Source: a virus (taxonomy: Duplodnaviria > Caudoviricetes). From it: a stretch of DNA of 64,000 nt. Below the pieces are notes generated by a model. That model saw only the letters and a program-made list of their open reading frames with translations, searched no databases and had not been told where the DNA came from. Where the stretch lies: positions 1 through 64,000 of the IMG/VR virus record IMGVR_UViG_3300002220_000003; one strand, written 5' to 3'. The translations under genes were made by a program, and so were the position numbers. Shown piece by piece: positions 16,369 to 26,759 of the stretch. The first letter of the stretch is position 1, and each line of letters opens with the position of its first letter.

Positions 16369-19300
16369 TTATATCACCCCTTTTCCTATCTGATATATTT
16401 TATCAGCAAAAACCTTAATTCCATCAAAAAAGATTTGTTTATTATTTGGATTGTGCAAAACGGCTGATGGATGAACGCACCAGCAAACCCATGCCCCAAT
16501 ATCTTCGATCCACTCGATTGTACCACTCTTATCCATAATACCCTTATCTCTGCCAGCAAGAGCTTTTAATCCTGTATTACCAAATGCCAATATAAAACGA
16601 GCATCAATCATTTTCAATTCATTCAAAAGCCATGGTTTACAAATATTGATCTGCTCCATGGTTGGAGTCCGGGTCAGTCTCGGATAACATTTGACAATAT
16701 TTGTAACATGGAATAATTCTCTCGGGAGATCATATTTATCAAGCTCACCCCAAAGCAAGTCGCCAGATCGACCGACAAATCCTTTACCCTGTTCATCCTC
16801 TTCTTTACCGGGGCCTTCACCTACAATGGCCATATTAAATTTACCCTCTGATGGCAAAACCGGCCCTTTGCACTCTTGTCTTAATGGACATTTAGTGCAA
16901 TCGGCAAGCGATCTATCACTGAAGCTCGCTGTCCTGATCAACCCTTTCATAAAAAAATTCATCGAAATAAGATCGTCTAAATTATTGGAATGACCTCTTG
17001 TTAATCGCTGAAGTTTGATATAATTATCACTACGAACAAGATCAATATCGAAGGTAAAATAAGATTGAAGATCCTTTGCCTGCGGGGTATTTCCGAAAGC
17101 ACCAATATCATTTAAAATCTTTGTAATTTTTGTTGATCTTACTACCGTATTTTTAGCGGCGAAAAATCCCGAAACAGATTTTGATTGTTTTGAATCAACG
17201 CATTGCTGCGCCCCCTTATCACCGATCCCTTTAATCTCGAGAAATGGAGCATATAAAACATTTTCTTTAACGATCCATTTATCGGCCTGAGAAACACCAA
17301 CTTGAGGCAACATAACTTTACATCCCAATCGCCTTGCCTCCCTGACCAATTCTTCCTTTTTGCTTTCGGGGCTATATGTAAGGGCGGCACAAATGAACTC
17401 AGTAGGATAGTAATGCTTCACCCATGAACACCAATATGCAAGCATAGCATACGCAACCGAATGTGATTTATTAAAACTATATGATGCATGTGCTTCGAGC
17501 ATTTGCCAAAAATCCTCAGCCTCTATCCCATCAAACATCCCCTGCTTCAAACATCCATCAATGAAAGATTGCTTATATTGAGCAAATTCCTTAACATCTC
17601 TTTTTTTACTTATAATCTTTCGAATCTTATCTGCCGTAGGATATGAAAGCCCTGCAATCTTATGGATCACCTGCATCACTTGCTCTTGATAGATAATAAT
17701 TCCATATGTATCCTTAACAATCTCCTCATATTTAGGGTGTTTTCCTTTCCATTTCTTACCATTGTGACGATCAATATACTCCTGAGTCATACCCGAATCA
17801 GACGGGCCGGGGCGGACAAGTGCAAGGATATCTGACAACATATCAAAATCCTCAACCTTCACTTGTTGACACATCTTTGTCCCGCCATAGGTATTTACCT
17901 GAAAAACTCCAACGGTATTTCCTTCCGCCAGATCCTTAAAAACATCTGGATCAGTAGGTTTAAGCAAAGCAAAATCCAAATCTATCTCTATCAATTCATC
18001 TGTAAGATCATCTCTATTGCCGGCCAAATAACAACAAGACTCAGGATGGTATAAAAATACTTTTTGATCACTTTCAGATATTAGCCTTTTAACCTCATTC
18101 AAAACCGTCAAAGTATTAAGCCCGAGAATATCGAGCTTCATCAAACCAACATATTCACTATCTTCCATATCCCAATTTGAAACAATCATTTGTGATCTTA
18201 TAGCAAGATTGCCCCTGGATCCCTGAGTAAGATCATCGGCGGATACCACGCAGGCTGCGGCATGTTGCCCGGCCCCCCTGATCTGTCCCTCCAATTCCAT
18301 TGCCAGATTAGTCTCATCAGAATATTTTTTATAAAATCTTCGCCCTTCCGGAGTATCAAGAGCACTCTCAATAACACCCTCATCTTTATCAGAGGCATCA
18401 AGAATCTTTGCGAAAGGATCGACATCTTCTAATGGTATATCAAACACGCGGGCGACATCTCGTATCGCAGCCCGGCCCTTCATTGTCAAAAAAGTAGATA
18501 TAGACGAAATATTATTTTTACCATACAATTCTTCAAGATGCTCCCGAATCAAGGCCCTTTTATTATCGGGAAAATCCATATCAATATCAGGATAATCAAT
18601 CCTTTCCTCTGATATAAAACGGGAGAAAAGCAAATTATATTTTATTGGATCGATGGTTGTAATGTCAAGTAGATAAGCCAATAAAGAACCACCAACCGAT
18701 CCTCTTCCCGGCCCCATCATAATCCCCTGATCATTACACCAATCTACAATCTCCTTAACGATCAAAAAATAACCAACAAATTTCTTACTCTTGATCAACT
18801 GCCACTCATCCATCAAACGATCATAATACATATCATATTTTTTTTGCGGCCAGTTTGCCGATTTATATTCAAGACTGGCCCGTGCTTCGTTCAATAAATA
18901 CGACTCGACATCCTTCCTTTCAAACCCGGGAACTATCGGCAAATAAATATCCTGCTTTTTAATTCTAAAATCACAACATTTTTTGGCAATATCTATCGTT
19001 GATCGGATTCCTTCATTGATTTCTGATTTAGTTAAAATCCCCTGCTTCTCAAAAGCCTTTACCATTTGTTGCTCTGATCTGAGAAATAAGCCTTCGATCC
19101 CAAAACGATATCTTGCCGGATCCGACCATTTTGCCTTTGTTTGGATTGCCAATAAGACCTCTTGTGTTTGGGCCTGAGTCTCAAGAATATAATGACAATC
19201 ATTTGTCGCAACCAACGGGACATCATACTTATCTGCCAACGATACACATAATTGATTAACTCGTATCTGATCATTAATAGAATGAGGCATAACCTCTAAA

Positions 19301-19794
19301 TATAAATCATCTCGAACAACCCTCAATAAATCCCTGAAAAAATCTCTTCCTCCTGGTTGATTCAAAAAAGTCATTGCACAGCCGGTCATAATCACCAGCC
19401 CCCGACAATAATTAAATAGATCCTGATACCCTATCCGGGGTTTATAATAGAAACCATCAAGATTAGCAATCGTCAATAATCTACAAAGATTTTTCCATCC
19501 CTGATCATTTTTAACCAGCACAACTATATGGCCTCTGACATCGCCCTTTTCTTTAATCGATGCATCCGGGACAATATATAACTCGGATCCCAATACTGGC
19601 TTAATGCCCTGCTTATCACAAGCCTTTTGAAATTTAATAAGCCCATCAATCGATGCATGATCTGTACAGGCAAGATATTCCATACCGATCTCTTTTGCCC
19701 TATCAACATACATTTCGGCACTTCCAAATCCATCTAATAAAGAATATTGGCTATGAAGATGAAGATGACAAAATTTCCCTGTCGTCACGATCAT
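16369..19794 (-). CDS. dnaE: DNA polymerase III alpha (family C) fused to a C-terminal family-4 uracil-DNA glycosylase
   Basis: PHP HLHLHSQYSLLDG/TDH/NDCH, GPGRGSVGGSL, PDIDMDF, HAAA, KLDILGL, YSFNKSHS, HhH IKGIG. UDG4 follows: CTKC..C, VGEGPG..E....GFVGRSG, TNIVKC, HPSA. Confidence 0.95.
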   Translation of the reverse strand: MIVTTGKFCHLHLHSQYSLLDGFGSAEMYVDRAKEIGMEYLACTDHASIDGLIKFQKACDKQGIKPVLGSELYIVPDASIKEKGDVRGHIVVLVKNDQGWKNLCRLLTIANLDGFYYKPRIGYQDLFNYCRGLVIMTGCAMTFLNQPGGRDFFRDLLRVVRDDLYLEVMPHSINDQIRVNQLCVSLADKYDVPLVATNDCHYILETQAQTQEVLLAIQTKAKWSDPARYRFGIEGLFLRSEQQMVKAFEKQGILTKSEINEGIRSTIDIAKKCCDFRIKKQDIYLPIVPGFERKDVESYLLNEARASLEYKSANWPQKKYDMYYDRLMDEWQLIKSKKFVGYFLIVKEIVDWCNDQGIMMGPGRGSVGGSLLAYLLDITTIDPIKYNLLFSRFISEERIDYPDIDMDFPDNKRALIREHLEELYGKNNISSISTFLTMKGRAAIRDVARVFDIPLEDVDPFAKILDASDKDEGVIESALDTPEGRRFYKKYSDETNLAMELEGQIRGAGQHAAACVVSADDLTQGSRGNLAIRSQMIVSNWDMEDSEYVGLMKLDILGLNTLTVLNEVKRLISESDQKVFLYHPESCCYLAGNRDDLTDELIEIDLDFALLKPTDPDVFKDLAEGNTVGVFQVNTYGGTKMCQQVKVEDFDMLSDILALVRPGPSDSGMTQEYIDRHNGKKWKGKHPKYEEIVKDTYGIIIYQEQVMQVIHKIAGLSYPTADKIRKIISKKRDVKEFAQYKQSFIDGCLKQGMFDGIEAEDFWQMLEAHASYSFNKSHSVAYAMLAYWCSWVKHYYPTEFICAALTYSPESKKEELVREARRLGCKVMLPQVGVSQADKWIVKENVLYAPFLEIKGIGDKGAQQCVDSKQSKSVSGFFAAKNTVVRSTKITKILNDIGAFGNTPQAKDLQSYFTFDIDLVRSDNYIKLQRLTRGHSNNLDDLISMNFFMKGLIRTASFSDRSLADCTKCPLRQECKGPVLPSEGKFNMAIVGEGPGKEEDEQGKGFVGRSGDLLWGELDKYDLPRELFHVTNIVKCYPRLTRTPTMEQINICKPWLLNELKMIDARFILAFGNTGLKALAGRDKGIMDKSGTIEWIEDIGAWVCWCVHPSAVLHNPNNKQIFFDGIKVFADKIYQIGKGVI

Positions 19795-19942
19795 TTACCT
19801 CCTTCAAATATCCCAACCAATCAATATGAAAATGGGCTTGATCATTATGATAATAAAACGAGAACAATCTATTGGCCCCATGTTCTACTAATTGCTTATC
19901 TCTTGTCGGTGTTGCGGTATTGCCTGCGAAATATATTATCAT
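19751..19942 (-). CDS. Small protein paralogous to the N-terminal module of the DpdA-like protein
   Basis: MIIYFAGN...NRLFSFYY. Confidence 0.6.
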   Translation of the reverse strand: MIIYFAGNTATPTRDKQLVEHGANRLFSFYYHNDQAHFHIDWLGYLKEVNDRDDREILSSSSS

Positions 19943-20081
19943 CTTTTTGAGAATCCTTTTTCCTTAATTCAAGTTCACCTACATTGGATTTGATCCAATA
20001 ATATGACATCAATCGATTAACAGATAAAAGTAAATTGCGATGCCATGTCGCTGTCACATTTGCCGCGAAATAAAGAATCAT
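19896..20081 (-). CDS. Small protein paralogous to the N-terminal module of the DpdA-like protein
   Basis: MILYFAAN...NRLMSYYW; ATGA-coupled to the dnaN stop. Confidence 0.65.
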   Translation of the reverse strand: MILYFAANVTATWHRNLLLSVNRLMSYYWIKSNVGELELRKKDSQKDDNIFRRQYRNTDKR

Positions 20082-21100
20082 TTATCCGCCATTTTAACTA
20101 CAACAAGATGGCGGAAATTCTTAGAGATAAAAAGTATCCGCCCCGATCCATACATAACTTTACGCGTCTTCTCAAGTATTTTAAGAAGAAACAATGGATT
20201 GATGGAAAATCTTATCGGCTCTTTCAATTTGATACCAGCCTCAAACATCAATTCCAACCATGCAATATTATTTTCCCCCCGGCAGACAATAGATCCTTCT
20301 GCAATTTCGATTTCAATAAGTTTCTCGGCATCGGTCTCTCCCTGTGCAACCGTTAAGGTCGCCTCCGCAGCCGCCTTTAACTCTTCAGGCAGCTCAAATT
20401 TGACTCCTTCAAAATCAAAATAGACATCTGTTTCCGGATACTCCATACCTGCCAACAATTGAGCACAAAACAGGGTTTCATCTTTGGCTTCAAAAAACGA
20501 CCATCCATCAACGATGCAAAATCTGACTATCTCGTAATTAAGAAGCTCCTGAACGATAGTGGCCGGGATGAGAAATGATTCCCCGATATCATCTTTGAAA
20601 ATATATTGGCTGATCCTCAAATTATCACTCGAGATCACTGCATCATGATCGACATACAGGCCAGTCAACCGGGGATTGCTCATATCTTTGGACGCAGAGA
20701 AAACACATAATTCTAATCCCTGCATGAAATCATCTGTAATCGATCTCCACTTTTTCTTTTTTGAAAGAAGAAGGCTGATCTCCTTCGTCAAATCTTCGCC
20801 TGTCTGCGTTAATATACCTCCCCGGGTTTTGCCTGCCCGGATGACCATCTTATCATTTTTTAGGGAAATATCCATCTCACCGTCAGGGATTTTATCAAGG
20901 ATTTTATAAAATTGTTCCGCCGGAATCGAGCAGGCAAAGTCCGTAGGAAATTTATGGACAATGCAAATATGATCATTGAAAGTACAAATCTCATCTCCGG
21001 TAAAAATGAAATGGGTTTGCTGCTCGACAATCGCTTTTTTTGCAAGGCCCGGCCTCACCATCTTCAATGCACTAATCATTTTTTCTTTTTCTATTTTCAC
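20078..21100 (-). CDS. dnaN: DNA polymerase III beta sliding clamp
   Basis: Three-domain beta-clamp pattern (SASKDMSNPRLTG, SSDNLRIS, FSINPLFLLKIL). GTG start at 21100 after SD AGGAGG. Confidence 0.8.
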   Translation of the reverse strand: MKIEKEKMISALKMVRPGLAKKAIVEQQTHFIFTGDEICTFNDHICIVHKFPTDFACSIPAEQFYKILDKIPDGEMDISLKNDKMVIRAGKTRGGILTQTGEDLTKEISLLLSKKKKWRSITDDFMQGLELCVFSASKDMSNPRLTGLYVDHDAVISSDNLRISQYIFKDDIGESFLIPATIVQELLNYEIVRFCIVDGWSFFEAKDETLFCAQLLAGMEYPETDVYFDFEGVKFELPEELKAAAEATLTVAQGETDAEKLIEIEIAEGSIVCRGENNIAWLELMFEAGIKLKEPIRFSINPLFLLKILEKTRKVMYGSGRILFISKNFRHLVVVKMADK

Positions 21101-21263
21101 TTTTTCCTCCTTTATAAAATCCATCTCTTACATAATTCTCAACAAAATCCCGGGTAGCATCTCTGAGAAAATAATATGACATCAATCTTCGAGAAGCCTT
21201 TACTTTAGTTAAAGTTACCCCTTGATCGCCCTCCAACCACGTAGCAAAATATATACGCATCAT
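21072..21263 (-). CDS. Small protein paralogous to the N-terminal module of the DpdA-like protein
   Basis: MRIYFATW...RRLMSYYF; ATGA-coupled to the dpdA-like stop. Confidence 0.65.
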   Translation of the reverse strand: MMRIYFATWLEGDQGVTLTKVKASRRLMSYYFLRDATRDFVENYVRDGFYKGGKSENRKRKND

Positions 21264-22369
21264 CCCTCCTGCAACAAACCAAATCCTTTAACTCCCCTGC
21301 GGGTATAGGGCCACGGCCACGGCGGCAAACTCTTTTCCAAATCGCAGAAAAAAATTATATTCATCTCGTCCCGCTGTTTATAATCATTAAACACACCGGG
21401 CTCAATAATGATCTCGACATAAGGTTCACCTTTTTCATTTTTACCATGGATAAGATATTCCCCCGGGACATACTCGCCTGCATCTACAACATCTTGTCTG
21501 AGTAATTGGGCATCTTCAACATTATACCATCTCTCATTCTCCTTGAGCTTATATCCCTTCTCAACAACCTTGAATTCCGATTTACCCATTTTAAAACCCT
21601 TGCTCTCGATATAATTCAAAATCATTCTCTGTTGGCTTGCACTCAAAGTAGAAAAATGCTGCCCTTCGACTTTCTTACCCGGCGACTGGGAAGATACGGT
21701 AATTTTCCAAGTATTTTCATCATAAACCCATTTGCCATTTTTATAAACAGGAACATAAATCGATCCAAATCTTCCCGTCAAAACCCAACTCGTTGAATCA
21801 GCGGAATACCACGGATATTTAACCATAATCTCCAATGATGTGATAGCAAATCCATGAACCTTAACTTTTGGCAGCCTGTCAGGAGTATCACAGATAATAT
21901 CCCAACAATCGTTCATCCATTGCTTGAGATGAGAACGATCTTTATCTTTTGCTACACCCCCGAGTGCAAGATAATCATAATTCTTAATGTAATAGTGCAG
22001 GTATTTCCAATCTTCCCCCCGATGAAAACAAGGCAAAGGTGTCAGTCCTGCGTCTTCCATTATCTGTTGATTTTTAAGGGTCTGTTCTGCATCACCAATA
22101 ACATCAAGGTTAGAATATATCGTAATGTCCTCTTTATGATTATTGATAAAATCAATGTAGTCATAAATATCGATCTTCGCCCCCTTGCTCATTGCAGAGT
22201 ATGCACCACTGTCCAAAAAGAGAGAAAGTTTTTTCATCGTTTTCCTCCTATACTCAAGTTCTCTTGTATTTTTATTAATAAACACAAATGAAAAAAGCCT
22301 ATCAAATTCAGACAAGATTTTAATCGTCTGCAATTTAGGATTATTGTTCCCGGCAAAATAAATCTCCAT
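21260..22369 (-). CDS. dpdA: TGT-fold DNA/tRNA-guanine transglycosylase-like protein (DpdA-like 7-deazaguanine insertase)
   Basis: LFLDSGAYS, NLDVIGD, PCFH.GE, LALGG, KVHGFA, SADSTSW; clustered with que genes. Possible second start MKKLSLFLDSG after an internal SD. Confidence 0.72.
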   Translation of the reverse strand: MEIYFAGNNNPKLQTIKILSEFDRLFSFVFINKNTRELEYRRKTMKKLSLFLDSGAYSAMSKGAKIDIYDYIDFINNHKEDITIYSNLDVIGDAEQTLKNQQIMEDAGLTPLPCFHRGEDWKYLHYYIKNYDYLALGGVAKDKDRSHLKQWMNDCWDIICDTPDRLPKVKVHGFAITSLEIMVKYPWYSADSTSWVLTGRFGSIYVPVYKNGKWVYDENTWKITVSSQSPGKKVEGQHFSTLSASQQRMILNYIESKGFKMGKSEFKVVEKGYKLKENERWYNVEDAQLLRQDVVDAGEYVPGEYLIHGKNEKGEPYVEIIIEPGVFNDYKQRDEMNIIFFCDLEKSLPPWPWPYTRRGVKGFGLLQEG

Positions 22370-22523
22370 CCTTTATTATATCATGATTTTTTTTAACCCA
22401 GTCAAATATTATATCTTCCCGGCATTCTTGTCTGTCGATCTCATAAAAATCGACCTTAAAAGAAATAGTCCCCGGATAATTTTTCTACCTCTGGAATAGT
22501 GTGTCGAATAGTAAAATATGTTA

Positions 22524-23000
22524 TCATTTCTTTTTTGGCCAGATAAGAGGCAAAACCAACAATCCTGATGCATATTTAATCACCGCCTGTCCCCAAATTG
22601 CCGGCCACACCCAGCCAAATGCAAGGGTCACAAAAACTATCGAATCCAATGGACATGAAAATATATTCGAAATATAAATCCTCTTATGAAATGGAAGCCC
22701 TGATACCTTAAAAACAAACCAATCCACGGATTCCGAAATAACAAATGCGGCAAAAGATGCAAGGGCCAAATGAAGATTAAAACAAACCGTAATCACCGAT
22801 GCCAAACCCATCCATATCCATGTTTGCCAATCGCCCCAAAACCTCTGAACAAAATCGCGAAACGAAAAGGTCAAACCAATAAAAACTACCCCGGCGGGAA
22901 AGGTCAGCCCGGCAACCTTTATAATCCCCAGCCAATTAACAAAAATATTGCCGAGCAGTATGCTTGCCAGATAAAGAAACCCCCAATACCATTTATTCAT
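22524..23000 (-). CDS. yhhQ: Queuosine-precursor transporter (YhhQ/VUT, DUF165)
   Basis: Multi-pass membrane protein with PAG..F.GLTF..RD..Q, AS..AF..SE..DW and SN......DS..F..LAF. Confidence 0.85.
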   Translation of the reverse strand: MNKWYWGFLYLASILLGNIFVNWLGIIKVAGLTFPAGVVFIGLTFSFRDFVQRFWGDWQTWIWMGLASVITVCFNLHLALASFAAFVISESVDWFVFKVSGLPFHKRIYISNIFSCPLDSIVFVTLAFGWVWPAIWGQAVIKYASGLLVLPLIWPKKK

Positions 23001-23026
23001 TTTTACCTCCAATCATTTATTATCAT

Positions 23027-23971
23027 TTATCCCCTGTCTATCCTTGCAAGAAATTCCATCTTGCAATTATTTCTATTCTCGGCGAAATATCCCCTGACGG
23101 CAATAGCCTCATATGGGGAATTCCATTTTTTGACACCCCTCATTTCTTTGCAAAGATGCCGGGCCTTCATGATCAAGATCAATCCTTTTGGATTGAGCTC
23201 TTTTTCAAGATCCCTGACAACCTCATCAACGAGCCTCTCGGCGATCTGCAACTTGCCGGCATAATAATCAATGATACGAGATATCTTTGACGCACCCAAA
23301 ATCCACTTATCTGGAATATATCCAAAATAATATTGACCAAAAAATGGAATAATATGATGCTCGCAAAATGAAAAGAAATACCCTTCGTCCCGGAGCATCT
23401 CATCATATTGCACCCCATCCTGACCATTCGGCACTACTGTCATCTTTGGCCGGCGAGTAGGATCATAACCCTGAAAAAACTCCTCATACATCCTTATCAC
23501 CCTACCGGGAGTTTCTACAAGGCCGGGTCTCATCGGATCATCCCCAATAAACTCAATAAGCCTTGTAATAATGTCTGTGCCGGCGATCTCCTGCATTTCC
23601 CACGGATAAATGATCCATTGATCATCAATAATATTTGCGGATAATGTTAAACGATGTGATAAAGATGCAGATTTAATATCATCCTGCAATCTTCTGGAGT
23701 GCAGACAAATGAAATCATGATGAGGAAACTTAAACCGGGTTTTTCCCGAATCAACGACATCATCACAAACCAGAACAAAATCCTGATTTGCCAAGGTCTG
23801 ATCAAGATCAAATATGGGTAAATCCAACCTCTCCGACAAAGCAACCGCAAGGGATACCCCTCCACGCGGAATCCCATAAACCCCAATATACTTACCACGA
23901 TCAATTTTCTTAATCAAAGTATCAACATCTGAACGAAAATTATCCCATGAATAAATCAACTTCTCTCCCAT
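23027..23971 (-). CDS. folE: Type I phosphoribosyltransferase (Gpt-like) fused to GTP cyclohydrolase I
   Basis: N-terminal GIPRGG and VLVCDDVVDSGKT (PRPP loop); C-terminal GLVETPGRV, FSFCEHHIIPFFG, GASKISR, ARHLCKEMRG. Confidence 0.9.
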   Translation of the reverse strand: MGEKLIYSWDNFRSDVDTLIKKIDRGKYIGVYGIPRGGVSLAVALSERLDLPIFDLDQTLANQDFVLVCDDVVDSGKTRFKFPHHDFICLHSRRLQDDIKSASLSHRLTLSANIIDDQWIIYPWEMQEIAGTDIITRLIEFIGDDPMRPGLVETPGRVIRMYEEFFQGYDPTRRPKMTVVPNGQDGVQYDEMLRDEGYFFSFCEHHIIPFFGQYYFGYIPDKWILGASKISRIIDYYAGKLQIAERLVDEVVRDLEKELNPKGLILIMKARHLCKEMRGVKKWNSPYEAIAVRGYFAENRNNCKMEFLARIDRG

Positions 23972-23973
23972 CT

Positions 23974-24648
23974 CTACCTCCCAATAGATAATAAAGGATC
24001 AACAATTCCATACTCGGCAAAACCTTTTGCCCTGAGTTTGCACGCAGGACATTCACCACATGGCGGCCGCTTCCCATTATAACAAGTATGGGTATAGGCA
24101 TACCAATCCAGATTACCGGTCATCTCCATACAAGCAATTATTTCTGCCTTCGACAGATTCATCAAAGGGGTATGGATCGTCATATCAGGCGCAGACAATC
24201 CTTTTTGCAATGTCTCCTGAAGCGACCTTATCGTTGAGTATCGGCAATCAGGATATCCGGAATAATCGGTCTGACAAACTCCCGTAAAAATATCCCGGAT
24301 TCCCAAAGTATATGCAAGGGCGGCGGCGAAAGTAATAAAAACAATATTTCTCCCGGGAACAAACGACGAAGGCAAGGATCGATCATTGGGATGTTCGGCA
24401 TTAATGTCCGTATCTTGATTTAAAAGATTGCTCTTGATTAATGAGGAAAAACTATTAATCGGAACGACATGATGAATAGCACCTGCAAGAAAGGATAATT
24501 TCTCCGCACACTCAAGTTCTATTCGATGTCGCTGTCCATAGTCAAATGAGATCGTATGAATTGGTTGCCACGCATCACTGCTTTTAATAATCGATAAACA
24601 AGTAGCCGAATCCTGACCGCCAGACAATACAACAACCACTCCCTTCAT
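23974..24648 (-). CDS. queC: 7-cyano-7-deazaguanine (preQ0) synthase
   Basis: VLSGGQDSATC, FDYGQRH, VPGRNIVF, DYSGYPDCR, TCY.G..PPCGECPAC..R. Confidence 0.96.
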   Translation of the reverse strand: MKGVVVVLSGGQDSATCLSIIKSSDAWQPIHTISFDYGQRHRIELECAEKLSFLAGAIHHVVPINSFSSLIKSNLLNQDTDINAEHPNDRSLPSSFVPGRNIVFITFAAALAYTLGIRDIFTGVCQTDYSGYPDCRYSTIRSLQETLQKGLSAPDMTIHTPLMNLSKAEIIACMEMTGNLDWYAYTHTCYNGKRPPCGECPACKLRAKGFAEYGIVDPLLSIGR

Positions 24649-24699
24649 CGTTCCTCCTTATCAAAATTTTATTGAGATCATCTTATATTATATCCTAAA

Positions 24700-24735
24700 A
24701 ATAAAAAGGCGATCAAAAAATCTGATCGCCTTTTC
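24700..24735 (-). terminator. Rho-independent terminator
   Basis: AAAAGGCGATC / GATCGCCTTTT inverted repeat with a U tract on the minus strand. Confidence 0.8.
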
Positions 24736-24750
24736 CATGAGGAAGGATCG

Positions 24751-25374
24751 TTACTTTGTCTTCAGGGCCAATGTCCCTTTTTCATCGTCACGGACAAACT
24801 TGATCTTGCGCTCTTTTTCCATCCGCGAAGGATTGCCGCCGAGCTGCACCGCAACCGTTTTCTTCATTTTGTCCTCTTCGCGATCGGGGAACAATTTGAC
24901 GAGCTTTGCAAGGATCTTGTCCTTTGTGACCGGGCCATCTTTGGTGATAATATCGAGAATGCTTGAGATCACACCAGGACCTTTTTCTTTCTTGTCCTTC
25001 GGAGCCTTCGGGGCTTTAGGGGCCTTGTCCTTCGGAGCCTTCGGGGCTTTATCGGCCTTATCGGCAGCCTTTTTGTCCTTGCCCTTGTCGGCGACGGCCT
25101 TTTCTTCCTGATCGATGATATCGTTGTACAAAGTCAGAGCGGCTTTAGGGCCGGGAAATTTCCCGTCAACATCTTCGATCTTGCCCATTGCAGCCATGAA
25201 GCTCTTCAAAATCGTCTCTTTGTCAACACCAACCAACTTGATCTTCTCGCCGAGCAACCCTGATTCGTTCAGGGCCACAACCGCTTCCCTTAAATCTTTG
25301 AATTTTACATCTACCGCTTTTTCCATAATGATGCCTCCCTTTGATTTGATTTTATTTTGTTTCTCCTGCCTCAT
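24751..25374 (-). CDS. Lys/Ala/Pro-rich histone-like protein with a C-terminal winged-helix-like domain
   Basis: KAPKAPKD repeats (28-bp duplication at 24991-25018 and 25024-25051). Has its own promoter and terminator. Possible starts are a leaderless ATG at 25374 or an SD-led ATG at 25326. Confidence 0.65.
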   Translation of the reverse strand: MRQEKQNKIKSKGGIIMEKAVDVKFKDLREAVVALNESGLLGEKIKLVGVDKETILKSFMAAMGKIEDVDGKFPGPKAALTLYNDIIDQEEKAVADKGKDKKAADKADKAPKAPKDKAPKAPKAPKDKKEKGPGVISSILDIITKDGPVTKDKILAKLVKLFPDREEDKMKKTVAVQLGGNPSRMEKERKIKFVRDDEKGTLALKTK

Positions 25375-25440
25375 GTTATAATTATATCATGTTTTAAGGG
25401 AATGTCAACACTTTTTTTCACTTTTTTTAAACTTTTTTTT
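25375..25440 (-). promoter_or_regulatory. Sigma70-type early promoter P2
   Basis: TTGACA (25408-25403), 16 bp, TGATATAAT ending at 25381; same design as P1 and P3. Confidence 0.8.
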
Positions 25441-25469
25441 ATGTGTCATAACTCCCTACAATCATTAAA

Positions 25470-26156
25470 CTATTTAGGTTCATCAAAATTAACAACCTTA
25501 TGCAGCTGAATGTTTAAAACCATTTTGGGGCTTGAAAACTCCATCATCCATCTCAATAAATCGGCCGCAAAATGACACTTTTTATCAGCATCAAACACGG
25601 GAGAAAAGGCGAAAAGGGCCAAACAACCCAGCCCTTCTAAAATACCCATTATCTTAACCGCCCTGTCAAAATCGGCCCGATCTGCAATAACAAACTTAAC
25701 AAAATCACTCGGCAAAAGATTGTAAAAAACTTCAGGATCCATCATTGCGCCCTGCCCTGACGACGGCAATTTATAATCAACAATGAATTTTGTCCCCGGC
25801 CACCTTGATCTTGCAGGCTTGAATTTTATCGATCCATTTGTCTCGATTGTTATCTGTCGATGCAGATTACTCAGCCTGCTACATAATCTCCATACCAAAT
25901 CTTGCTGAAGAAAAGGTTCGCCGCCTGTGATTGTAACTTTGCCGATTCCCCGATAAGAAACAATAGTATCAATTATCGAATCAATCGACATATCTTTGCC
26001 ATCGTTTAATCCTGCGGCATACTGGGTATCGCAATATTTACATTGAAGATTGCATCCGGCCAGCCGGACAAAAACAGTTAATCGTCCTTGATAAAAATGA
26101 TTAACCTCTCCATCGATACTCGGAAAAATACTATACACTCTCAAATATTTTTTCAT
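25470..26156 (-). CDS. queE: 7-carboxy-7-deazaguanine synthase (radical SAM)
   Basis: IF.SIDGE, FVRLAGCNLQCKYCDT, TITGGEP, IETNGS, VDYKLPSS, QLHK. Confidence 0.94.
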   Translation of the reverse strand: MKKYLRVYSIFPSIDGEVNHFYQGRLTVFVRLAGCNLQCKYCDTQYAAGLNDGKDMSIDSIIDTIVSYRGIGKVTITGGEPFLQQDLVWRLCSRLSNLHRQITIETNGSIKFKPARSRWPGTKFIVDYKLPSSGQGAMMDPEVFYNLLPSDFVKFVIADRADFDRAVKIMGILEGLGCLALFAFSPVFDADKKCHFAADLLRWMMEFSSPKMVLNIQLHKVVNFDEPK

Positions 26157-26186
26157 TTCTCCTTCTCCCCTCTCTTCTATTTTTTG

Positions 26187-26378
26187 TTATTCTTTTTTTA
26201 CCTCTCTCCATACAATAGGGATTTCCTGCGGCTCTACTACCAATATCTTCTCCCAAATAGAAACCTCTATATTTAGATGTTTGCATATCCTTTCAGCTTC
26301 CATCTTTGCATCCGAAATATTTTCATATGCACGTCTCTCTATTCCCCCTTGTTGATAAGATATAAGATATTCCTTCAT
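26187..26378 (-). CDS. Hypothetical protein
   Basis: 63-aa ORF between queD and queE. Confidence 0.5.
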   Translation of the reverse strand: MKEYLISYQQGGIERRAYENISDAKMEAERICKHLNIEVSIWEKILVVEPQEIPIVWREVKKE

Positions 26379-26759
26379 CTACCCCTCCCTTTCAAAAATG
26401 GCGCAGGCCCCTTCCGTCTCCCATACCTTAACCCTAAAAAGATGTGTTCGCATCAATTCAGATTTCGACATTAAAACATCAAAAATCCACTCGACCATAT
26501 TCTCGGCGGTCGGATTCTCAAGCCCGGGAATGCCATTGAGAAGTTTATGATCAAGCTCATCAATGATGAACATATTTACCAGTTGTTTTAGCTTGCCAAA
26601 ATCAAGTATCATGCCTTGAGCAGGTCCCCGATCTTGCTTCTTGCCAATTAATGTAATCTCAATTTTATACGCATGTCCATGAAGATGCTTGCATTTACCT
26701 TCATGATTAGGTAAAAAATGAGCAGCCTCCAAAGTAAACATCTTGCTGATCGTCAACAT
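26379..26759 (-). CDS. queD: 6-carboxy-5,6,7,8-tetrahydropterin synthase
   Basis: FTLEAAHFL..H.GKC..LHGH.Y, DFG.LK, LDH..LN, NPTAEN, WET. Confidence 0.95.
   Translation of the reverse strand: MLTISKMFTLEAAHFLPNHEGKCKHLHGHAYKIEITLIGKKQDRGPAQGMILDFGKLKQLVNMFIIDELDHKLLNGIPGLENPTAENMVEWIFDVLMSKSELMRTHLFRVKVWETEGACAIFEREG

Follow-up and report, generated by a model that had tools for sequence, protein, structure and literature searches.

We analyzed a 64,000-nucleotide stretch of viral DNA (hereafter the window; positions 1-64,000 of IMGVR_UViG_3300002220_000003, a virus record of 84,136 bp that is complete and has terminal repeats), focusing on a gene related to dpdA and on three very small genes close to it. 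DpdA is a DNA-modifying enzyme that replaces guanine by a 7-deazaguanine. On the minus strand, the DpdA-like open reading frame (ORF) of 369 amino acids (aa) is followed, in this order, by a mini-gene, the sliding clamp gene, two more mini-genes, and a gene in which the α subunit of DNA polymerase III (PolIII-alpha) is joined to a uracil-DNA glycosylase (UDG) domain (Table 1). The mini-genes and their products are named here after their first nucleotide, as mini 21263, mini 20081, and mini 19942.

The N-terminus of the large protein and the three minis share the pattern M-x-[IL]-Y-F-A ... R-L-[FM]-S-[FY], as had been noticed in an earlier reading of the letters (the original prediction) and as is borne out by the ORF list, the alignment, and a profile search. 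The four minus-strand copies start at 22369 (hereafter the cis copy, which shares the reading frame of the DpdA-like gene), 21263, 20081, and 19942; all are intact and equipped with start signals. In the alignment, M1, Y4, F5, A6, R24, L25, and S27 are invariant in the four copies, whose pairwise identity is 34-40%. A profile of the module searched against the whole 84,136-bp genome returned exactly 4 sites, with E-values of 2e-13 (the cis copy) to 2e-17, and the DNA alignment of the four copies showed no nucleotide conservation of the kind seen in repeat elements. The shared tails of two copies, INKNTRELEYRRK and IKSNVGELELRKK, were found as claimed, and the two 4-nucleotide ATGA overlaps are real, one between the DpdA stop codon and mini 21263, the other between the clamp stop codon and mini 20081. 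Neither the 369-aa protein nor the minis matched Pfam, the minis had no match in PHROGs, and sequence searches of the PDB gave nothing useful.

Table 1. Features of the dpdA region of the window, and split modules in related loci (nt, nucleotides).
Feature	Position	Strand	Remarks
DpdA-like ORF, 369 aa	21260-22369	(-)	from the ORF list
Extended -10 TGATATAAT	22375-22383	(-)	putative; ends 5 nt before ATG 22369
Cis module, residues 1-44 of the 369-aa ORF	22238-22369	(-)	β1 EIYFAG, loop/helix, β2 DRLFSFVF; in frame with the core
AGGAGG Shine-Dalgarno	22244-22249	(-)	6 nt, then internal ATG 22237 (M45)
DpdA core, 325 aa from M45	21260-22237	(-)	strands β3-β8, large insertion, helix α8; phrog_887, E = 3e-54
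Mini, 'ATW' type, 62-63 aa	21072-21263	(-)	ATGA-coupled to DpdA stop; GGAGG just upstream
Sliding clamp gene	20078-21124	(-)	phrog_947, E = 6e-30; sits between minis
Mini, 61 aa	19896-20081	(-)	ATGA-coupled to clamp stop; tail like that of the cis copy
Mini, 63 aa, '...NRLFSFYYH' type	19751-19942	(-)	tail overlaps Shine-Dalgarno and start of polymerase gene
PolIII-alpha with C-terminal UDG	16369-19794	(-)	Pfam PHP, DNA_pol3_alpha, finger, UDG; downstream of last mini
Modules split at (AG)5-7, encoding RERE	L019:6507-6687, L030:7855-7990, L032:4167-4329, L068:6562-6727, L080:158-324 and 2137-2324		

The large protein matches phrog_887, annotated as queuine tRNA-ribosyltransferase, with an E-value of 5.6e-56, and gave no match to the Pfam family of tRNA-guanine transglycosylases (TGTs) or in a PDB sequence profile search. 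Aligned from the motif FLDSG onward, its core shares 44% identity with DpdA from Escherichia phage CAjan. An AlphaFold2 (AF2) model of the core has a predicted local distance difference test score (pLDDT) of about 90 and six barrel strands; its top Foldseek matches are all TGTs, and structural alignment (VIA-align) superimposes it on bacterial DpdA (bDpdA; 7ui4) with a Z of 14.3 and a root-mean-square deviation of 4.0 over 250 residues, and on TGTs with a Z of about 14. Deletion of dpdA in CAjan abolishes dPreQ0, and the residues named for catalysis or base binding in the CAjan enzyme are D63, S64, F67, D105, H132, G153, G154, and D206 (PMC7544227). In the window protein they align with D53, S54, Y57, D89, H116, G138, G139, and D191, every one of which lies after M45. 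Across 72 homologs, D53, S54, D89, H116, G138, and D191 do not vary; Y57 and G139 are absent from the list of invariant positions. No CxCxxC was found in the window protein, nor in CAjan DpdA, and because the CxCx2C...H zinc site is a feature of TGTs and bDpdA, we class the window protein, from its sequence, as phage DpdA1-like and not as bDpdA, with insertion of a 7-deazaguanine as its predicted activity. In two homologs of about 645 aa (P0005 and P0092), some 320 residues that resemble an intein and start with Cys are inserted right after YPWY, directly before the strand holding the nucleophile aspartate.

The position of the module within the fold can be read from bDpdA, in which the aspartate of the DSG motif, D95, stands immediately before Ins3, in the β3/α3 loop, and in which Ins1 and Ins2 come after β1 and β2 (PMC10164549). 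The motif FLDSGA is therefore β3, and a protein starting at M45 is without β1 and β2. Structural alignment places residue 1 of the model at residue 40-54 of TGTs and at residue 4 of 7ui4, and in a second model residue 55 is aligned with TGT residue 96. In an AF2 model of a relative in which module and core are fused (P0023, modeled with an alignment of fused homologs only), the module forms a strand (5-7), a helix (12-21), a second strand (25-27), and a second helix (36-53) before β3, with a module pLDDT of 64-80. Because the structural alignments, the six-strand core model, and the P0023 model agree, the module is the first (β-α)2 quarter of the TIM (triosephosphate isomerase) barrel of TGTs and DpdA, made of β1, a variable loop or helix, β2, and sometimes α2. 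Its earlier assignment as the first β-α-β(-α) unit of a TGT-type barrel is thus supported.

The large gene has candidate start signals both for the entire protein and for the core. An AGGAGG Shine-Dalgarno (SD) motif, at 22249-22244, does precede the internal MKKLSLFLDSG, as predicted, and the leaderless look of the first ATG fits with a putative extended -10 element, TGATATAAT, at 22383-22375 (Table 1). This element had not been listed by a promoter scan because it has no -35. Since it ends so close to the first ATG, and since the closest relative, L008, has the same layout with TGGTATAAT at the corresponding place, it is plausible that the cis module is translated from an mRNA with no leader or almost none. 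The extended -10 pattern, TGNTATAAT, is enriched in the window, where it has 17 sites although 5.3 would be expected, a number that none of 100 shuffled sequences attained. Another of these sites, at 25381-25389(-), also ends about 6 nucleotides before an ATG, that of the gene starting at 25374, and this phage may therefore have several leaderless transcripts. As for the internal start, M45 was chosen as the beginning of the window gene by a gene caller (P0001), and 42 of 44 fused homologs have a Met 3-16 residues before FLDSG, compared to an expected 33%, suggesting that the internal start has been retained even after module fusion. We infer that translation of the large gene would begin at M1 as well as at M45.

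Among the best 120 DpdA homologs, most are 295-325 aa long and start at the core, and about one quarter have one fused module. DpdA homologs carry 0, 1, 2, 3, or 4 fused modules, and in P0136, P0172, P0123, P0155, P0187, and P0126, 2-4 tandem N-terminal modules stand in one frame, each starting with Met. When 1.84 billion representatives were searched with a profile built from 17 modules and a cut-off of E<=1e-3, 286 cluster representatives matched, nearly all of them 40-75 aa long and matching from residue 1, with some minis made of two modules. The 'ATW' type of mini 21263 is itself a family of 56 members, in which T7, L17, R25, L26, and S28 are invariant. A hidden Markov model (HMM) of the free-standing minis recognizes the window copies with E-values of 1e-5 to 3e-18 (3e-18 for mini 21263, 1e-9 for mini 20081, and 2.5e-15 for mini 19942), and all four fit the family pattern M-x-[IVL]-[YFW]-[FLM]-[AS], a spacer of 10-26 residues, and [RK]-L-x-S-[FY]. 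A recurrent '[DE][DE]NI[FS]' at the C-terminus of family members was considered as a further motif and rejected, being the ATGAAAATATATTT of the next mini read out of frame.

In order to see how modules and cores are arranged, within a comparison that took in about 90 related phages, we scanned 80 related viral loci with the HMM of the free-standing minis, which gave 241 matches on the dpdA strand, 0 on the opposite strand, and a median of 3 per locus, 37 of the 241 spanning only half a module. The module is fused in 25 loci, is a separate ORF just upstream in 22, and first appears right after the core in 23; modules lie further downstream in 5, none was detected in 2, and 3 were left unclassified (1 because of a contig edge, 2 because the core pattern failed). 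About two thirds of these dpdA genes are thus without a fused module, and L005 and L006 each combine a headless core with a single, free-standing module. Modules that are fused in some homologs and separate in others form a Rosetta-stone pattern. In L008, whose core is 76% identical to that of the window protein, the cis module is a separate ORF of 38 aa, with a TAA following the conserved AGGAGG; mini 19942 is 65% identical to its counterpart at L008 8602-8796, and no counterpart of mini 20081 was found in that locus. A search of related phages for the same mini-ORFs had been proposed with the original prediction, and they were found in nearly all of the 80 loci. On the strength of these sequence comparisons, the mini-genes are real genes of a large family. 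We found no publication on a split DpdA or on these mini-genes.

The ratio of nonsynonymous to synonymous substitution rates (dN/dS) was obtained for 74 ortholog-like module pairs from different loci and has a median of 0.21 (interquartile range 0.17-0.28), with no value above 1. Judging from these ratios, purifying selection acts on the modules, and they are not the degenerate remnants that a dN/dS near 1 would have indicated. Between the window and L008, the ratio is 0.48 for the cis module, 0.55 for mini 21263, and 0.25 for mini 19942. Each window copy is closer to a copy in another phage (0.43-0.72) than to the other copies in its own genome (0.35-0.39), and the paralogs are therefore old, older than the phage lineages.

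In the related loci, 6 of 7 frame-split modules break at (AG)5-7 (Table 1), and a run of at least 4 units occurs in 26 of 204 intact modules. The breaks fit a repeat-driven on/off switching in related phages. No such dinucleotide-repeat switch was found in the window, where no run exceeds 3.5 units.

We modeled the complex of the core (residues 45-369, alignment of 72 rows) with mini 21263 (alignment of 56 rows) in three runs, together with three controls. The interface score ipSAE (interaction prediction score from aligned errors) which expresses the confidence of the model and is no measurement, was 0.87-0.88 in the three runs, and 0.00 for the best control; of 80 solved complexes, 58 reach the mark used for this score, as do 2 of 110 mismatched pairs, a calibration that is rough here since our own alignments were used. 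The partner has a pLDDT of 75-76, and at least 90% of the contacts agree between runs. In the best-determined contacts, mini residues 24-29 (RRLMSY) pair with core residues 50-54 (LFLDS, β3), and mini residues 2-4 with core residues 189-191 (SAD, β8), so that in the model mini 21263 sits between β8 and β3 of the core, with the geometry of barrel closure. The original prediction held that the barrel can be made without its first unit and be completed in trans: the split genes of the relatives and the modeled closure by mini 21263 both speak for it, and completion in trans stands as a prediction.

Taken together, we consider it probable that the minis are real subunits supplying β1-β2 to a headless DpdA core, and that the window phage makes both the 369-aa enzyme and the headless core. 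The 369-aa form, with one quarter attached, would be translated from the leaderless ATG, and the 325-aa headless core probably from the internal ATG behind the SD motif. The three minis of 61-63 aa would be paralogous quarters, each inserting between β8 and β3 and closing the barrel non-covalently.

Several observations weigh against this proposal. In the AF2 model of the 369-aa window protein, the cis module has a pLDDT of only 38-46. The docking result covers mini 21263, one of the three minis, and the score of the complex may reflect the model's memory of single-chain TGT and DpdA structures, a common effect with the halves of split proteins. The modules are also less constrained than the neighboring enzymes, with a dN/dS of 0.25-0.55 compared to 0.06-0.14 between the window and L008. 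Finally, the L008 counterpart of mini 21263 (L008:7477-7617) has an in-frame deletion of 18 codons which removes β2 and keeps the ORF and the tail, and the counterpart in L009/L010 is frameshifted. Because of this decay, the copy corresponding to mini 21263 is dispensable in some phages.

The decayed copies in L008 and L009/L010, the 37 half-module matches, the weaker constraint, and the mini 20081 that has no L008 counterpart could all be accommodated if only the fused cis quarter mattered, the free copies being redundant or decaying birth-and-death duplicates with little or no present function. Nevertheless, we regard this explanation as unlikely, given the roughly two thirds of related dpdA genes that have no fused quarter, at loci which in all but 2-3 cases do have free ones. 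The median dN/dS, the paralogs that predate the phage lineages, and the four intact window copies with their start signals also argue against it.

The same docking geometry would be expected if the minis were regulators, either competing for the core's open seam and keeping it inactive or acting as folding helpers that time DpdA to replication, and their genes do lie inside the replication operon, in translational coupling with those of the clamp and the polymerase. However, since no catalytic or pocket residue is known in the quarter, binding of a mini should complete the enzyme and not inactivate it, and the headless cores of L005 and L006, with their single free module, would need that module for activity. 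A regulatory role therefore seems to us quite improbable.

The original prediction had also considered a tether to the replisome, for which we found no support. Such a role was suggested only by the likeness of N-R-L-x-S-F-Y-Y to a PIP-type box and by the position of one mini directly before the clamp gene. We rejected the clamp-binding reading of NRLxSFYY, because the same residues are modeled as the buried strand β2, paired with β3 at the core interface, and are part of the barrel in the fused enzymes; in addition, tandem fusions are always to DpdA and never to the clamp or the polymerase. Minis that tether something to the sliding clamp are thus highly improbable. We give still less credence to the small ORFs as upstream leaders for translational coupling with irrelevant peptides: at its 3' end each overlaps the following gene's SD and start, and the out-of-frame reading of ATGAAAATATATTT described above would suit this, but conservation is at the protein level, with two strand motifs kept across a spacer of 10-26 residues and a dN/dS of 0.21, and the same peptide is found fused to DpdA. 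A barrel made of four quarters on their own is argued against by the copy number, which is 1-6 per locus.

The interface strands are conserved in all four copies, and the spacer after β1 and the residues after the strands vary. The bacterial counterparts of these loops, Ins1 and Ins2, lie on the DNA-binding, active-site face (PMC10164549). Since strands are conserved, loops vary, and the bacterial counterparts face the DNA and the active site, a role in tuning specificity is reasonable; we tentatively suggest, as a possible though doubtful extension of the subunit proposal, that one core uses interchangeable first-quarter subunits whose DNA-facing loops set the guanine contexts that are replaced. 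The differing loops of the four quarters, the counterparts of Ins1/Ins2, would then give different DNA-context preferences, which would let more guanines be replaced.

DpdA lets phages hide guanines from restriction enzymes, and the CAjan enzyme modifies two unrelated motifs, GA and GGC. Were the suggestion true, one enzyme would cover several motifs, and in related phages (AG)n repeats could serve as on/off switches for individual subunits. Cores and quarters that can be mixed in vitro would also offer a simple handle on DpdA specificity. For annotation, there is the consequence that such dpdA genes come out of gene callers as N-truncated, and that the mini-genes are often passed over.

Just upstream of dpdA, at 22524-26759, lie the preQ0 genes, encoding a FolE-phosphoribosyltransferase fusion, QueC, a QueE-like radical-SAM protein, PTPS/QueD, and a Vut/YhhQ transporter. 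In the fusion protein, the GTP cyclohydrolase I (23027-23971(-)) has an N-terminal phosphoribosyltransferase domain (Pfam E-values of 2e-46 and 4e-7), and the same fusion occurs in L008. The polymerase (16369-19794(-)) combines PHP, NTPase, and finger domains with its C-terminal domain of the uracil-DNA-glycosylase family (Pfam E = 2e-22), which is N-terminal instead in relatives with a family-A polymerase (L009). On the 155-kb viral contig of L009, a DUF5591 (ArcS-type) protein is encoded at 7183-8004, directly before and overlapping the headless dpdA, which suggests further tailoring of the inserted base.

The closest known system is that of CAjan (Seuratvirus), whose DpdA (YP_009196829) resembles the window protein in its core identity of 44%, in both aspartates, and in the pocket residues, and whose genes stand in the same order, folE/queD ... 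dpdA - clamp - polymerase. Fused to the N-terminus of CAjan DpdA is one stretch, MNVFMAA...HILESYHYV, which follows the same pattern by eye and is not detected by the free-mini HMM. The two systems differ in that CAjan has one fused quarter and no free copies, whereas four quarters are present in the window, together with an internal start led by an SD motif and a C-terminal region that is longer; the module motif was not found in gp36 and gp34, the small ORFs flanking dpdA in CAjan.

The bDpdA of Salmonella Montevideo (7UI4) and the TGTs share the (β/α)8 fold, in which β3 carries the DSG aspartate and the last strand the nucleophile aspartate. They consist of one polypeptide and have the CxCx2C...H zinc site that the window protein lacks, and bDpdA requires DpdB. 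To our knowledge, a first quarter that is split off or present in several copies is not on record for these enzymes.

A looser parallel is found in HsdS of Type I restriction-modification and in phage contingency loci, in which one catalytic machine is combined with small alternative parts. This likeness is one of function only: there is no homology, the window modules have no (AG)n repeats, and a specificity role of the minis would be putative.

With respect to protein architecture, the nearest parallels are the halves of HisF and the quarters of sTIM11, in which a separable (β-α)2 piece of about 45 residues reassembles a barrel. Those are laboratory constructs or evolutionary inferences, whereas the DpdA split is natural and widespread, with several paralogous alternatives per core. 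A TIM barrel that is routinely split, and for which several paralogous quarters are kept, would be a rare natural case of sub-domain assembly, and bears on the evolution of TIM barrels.

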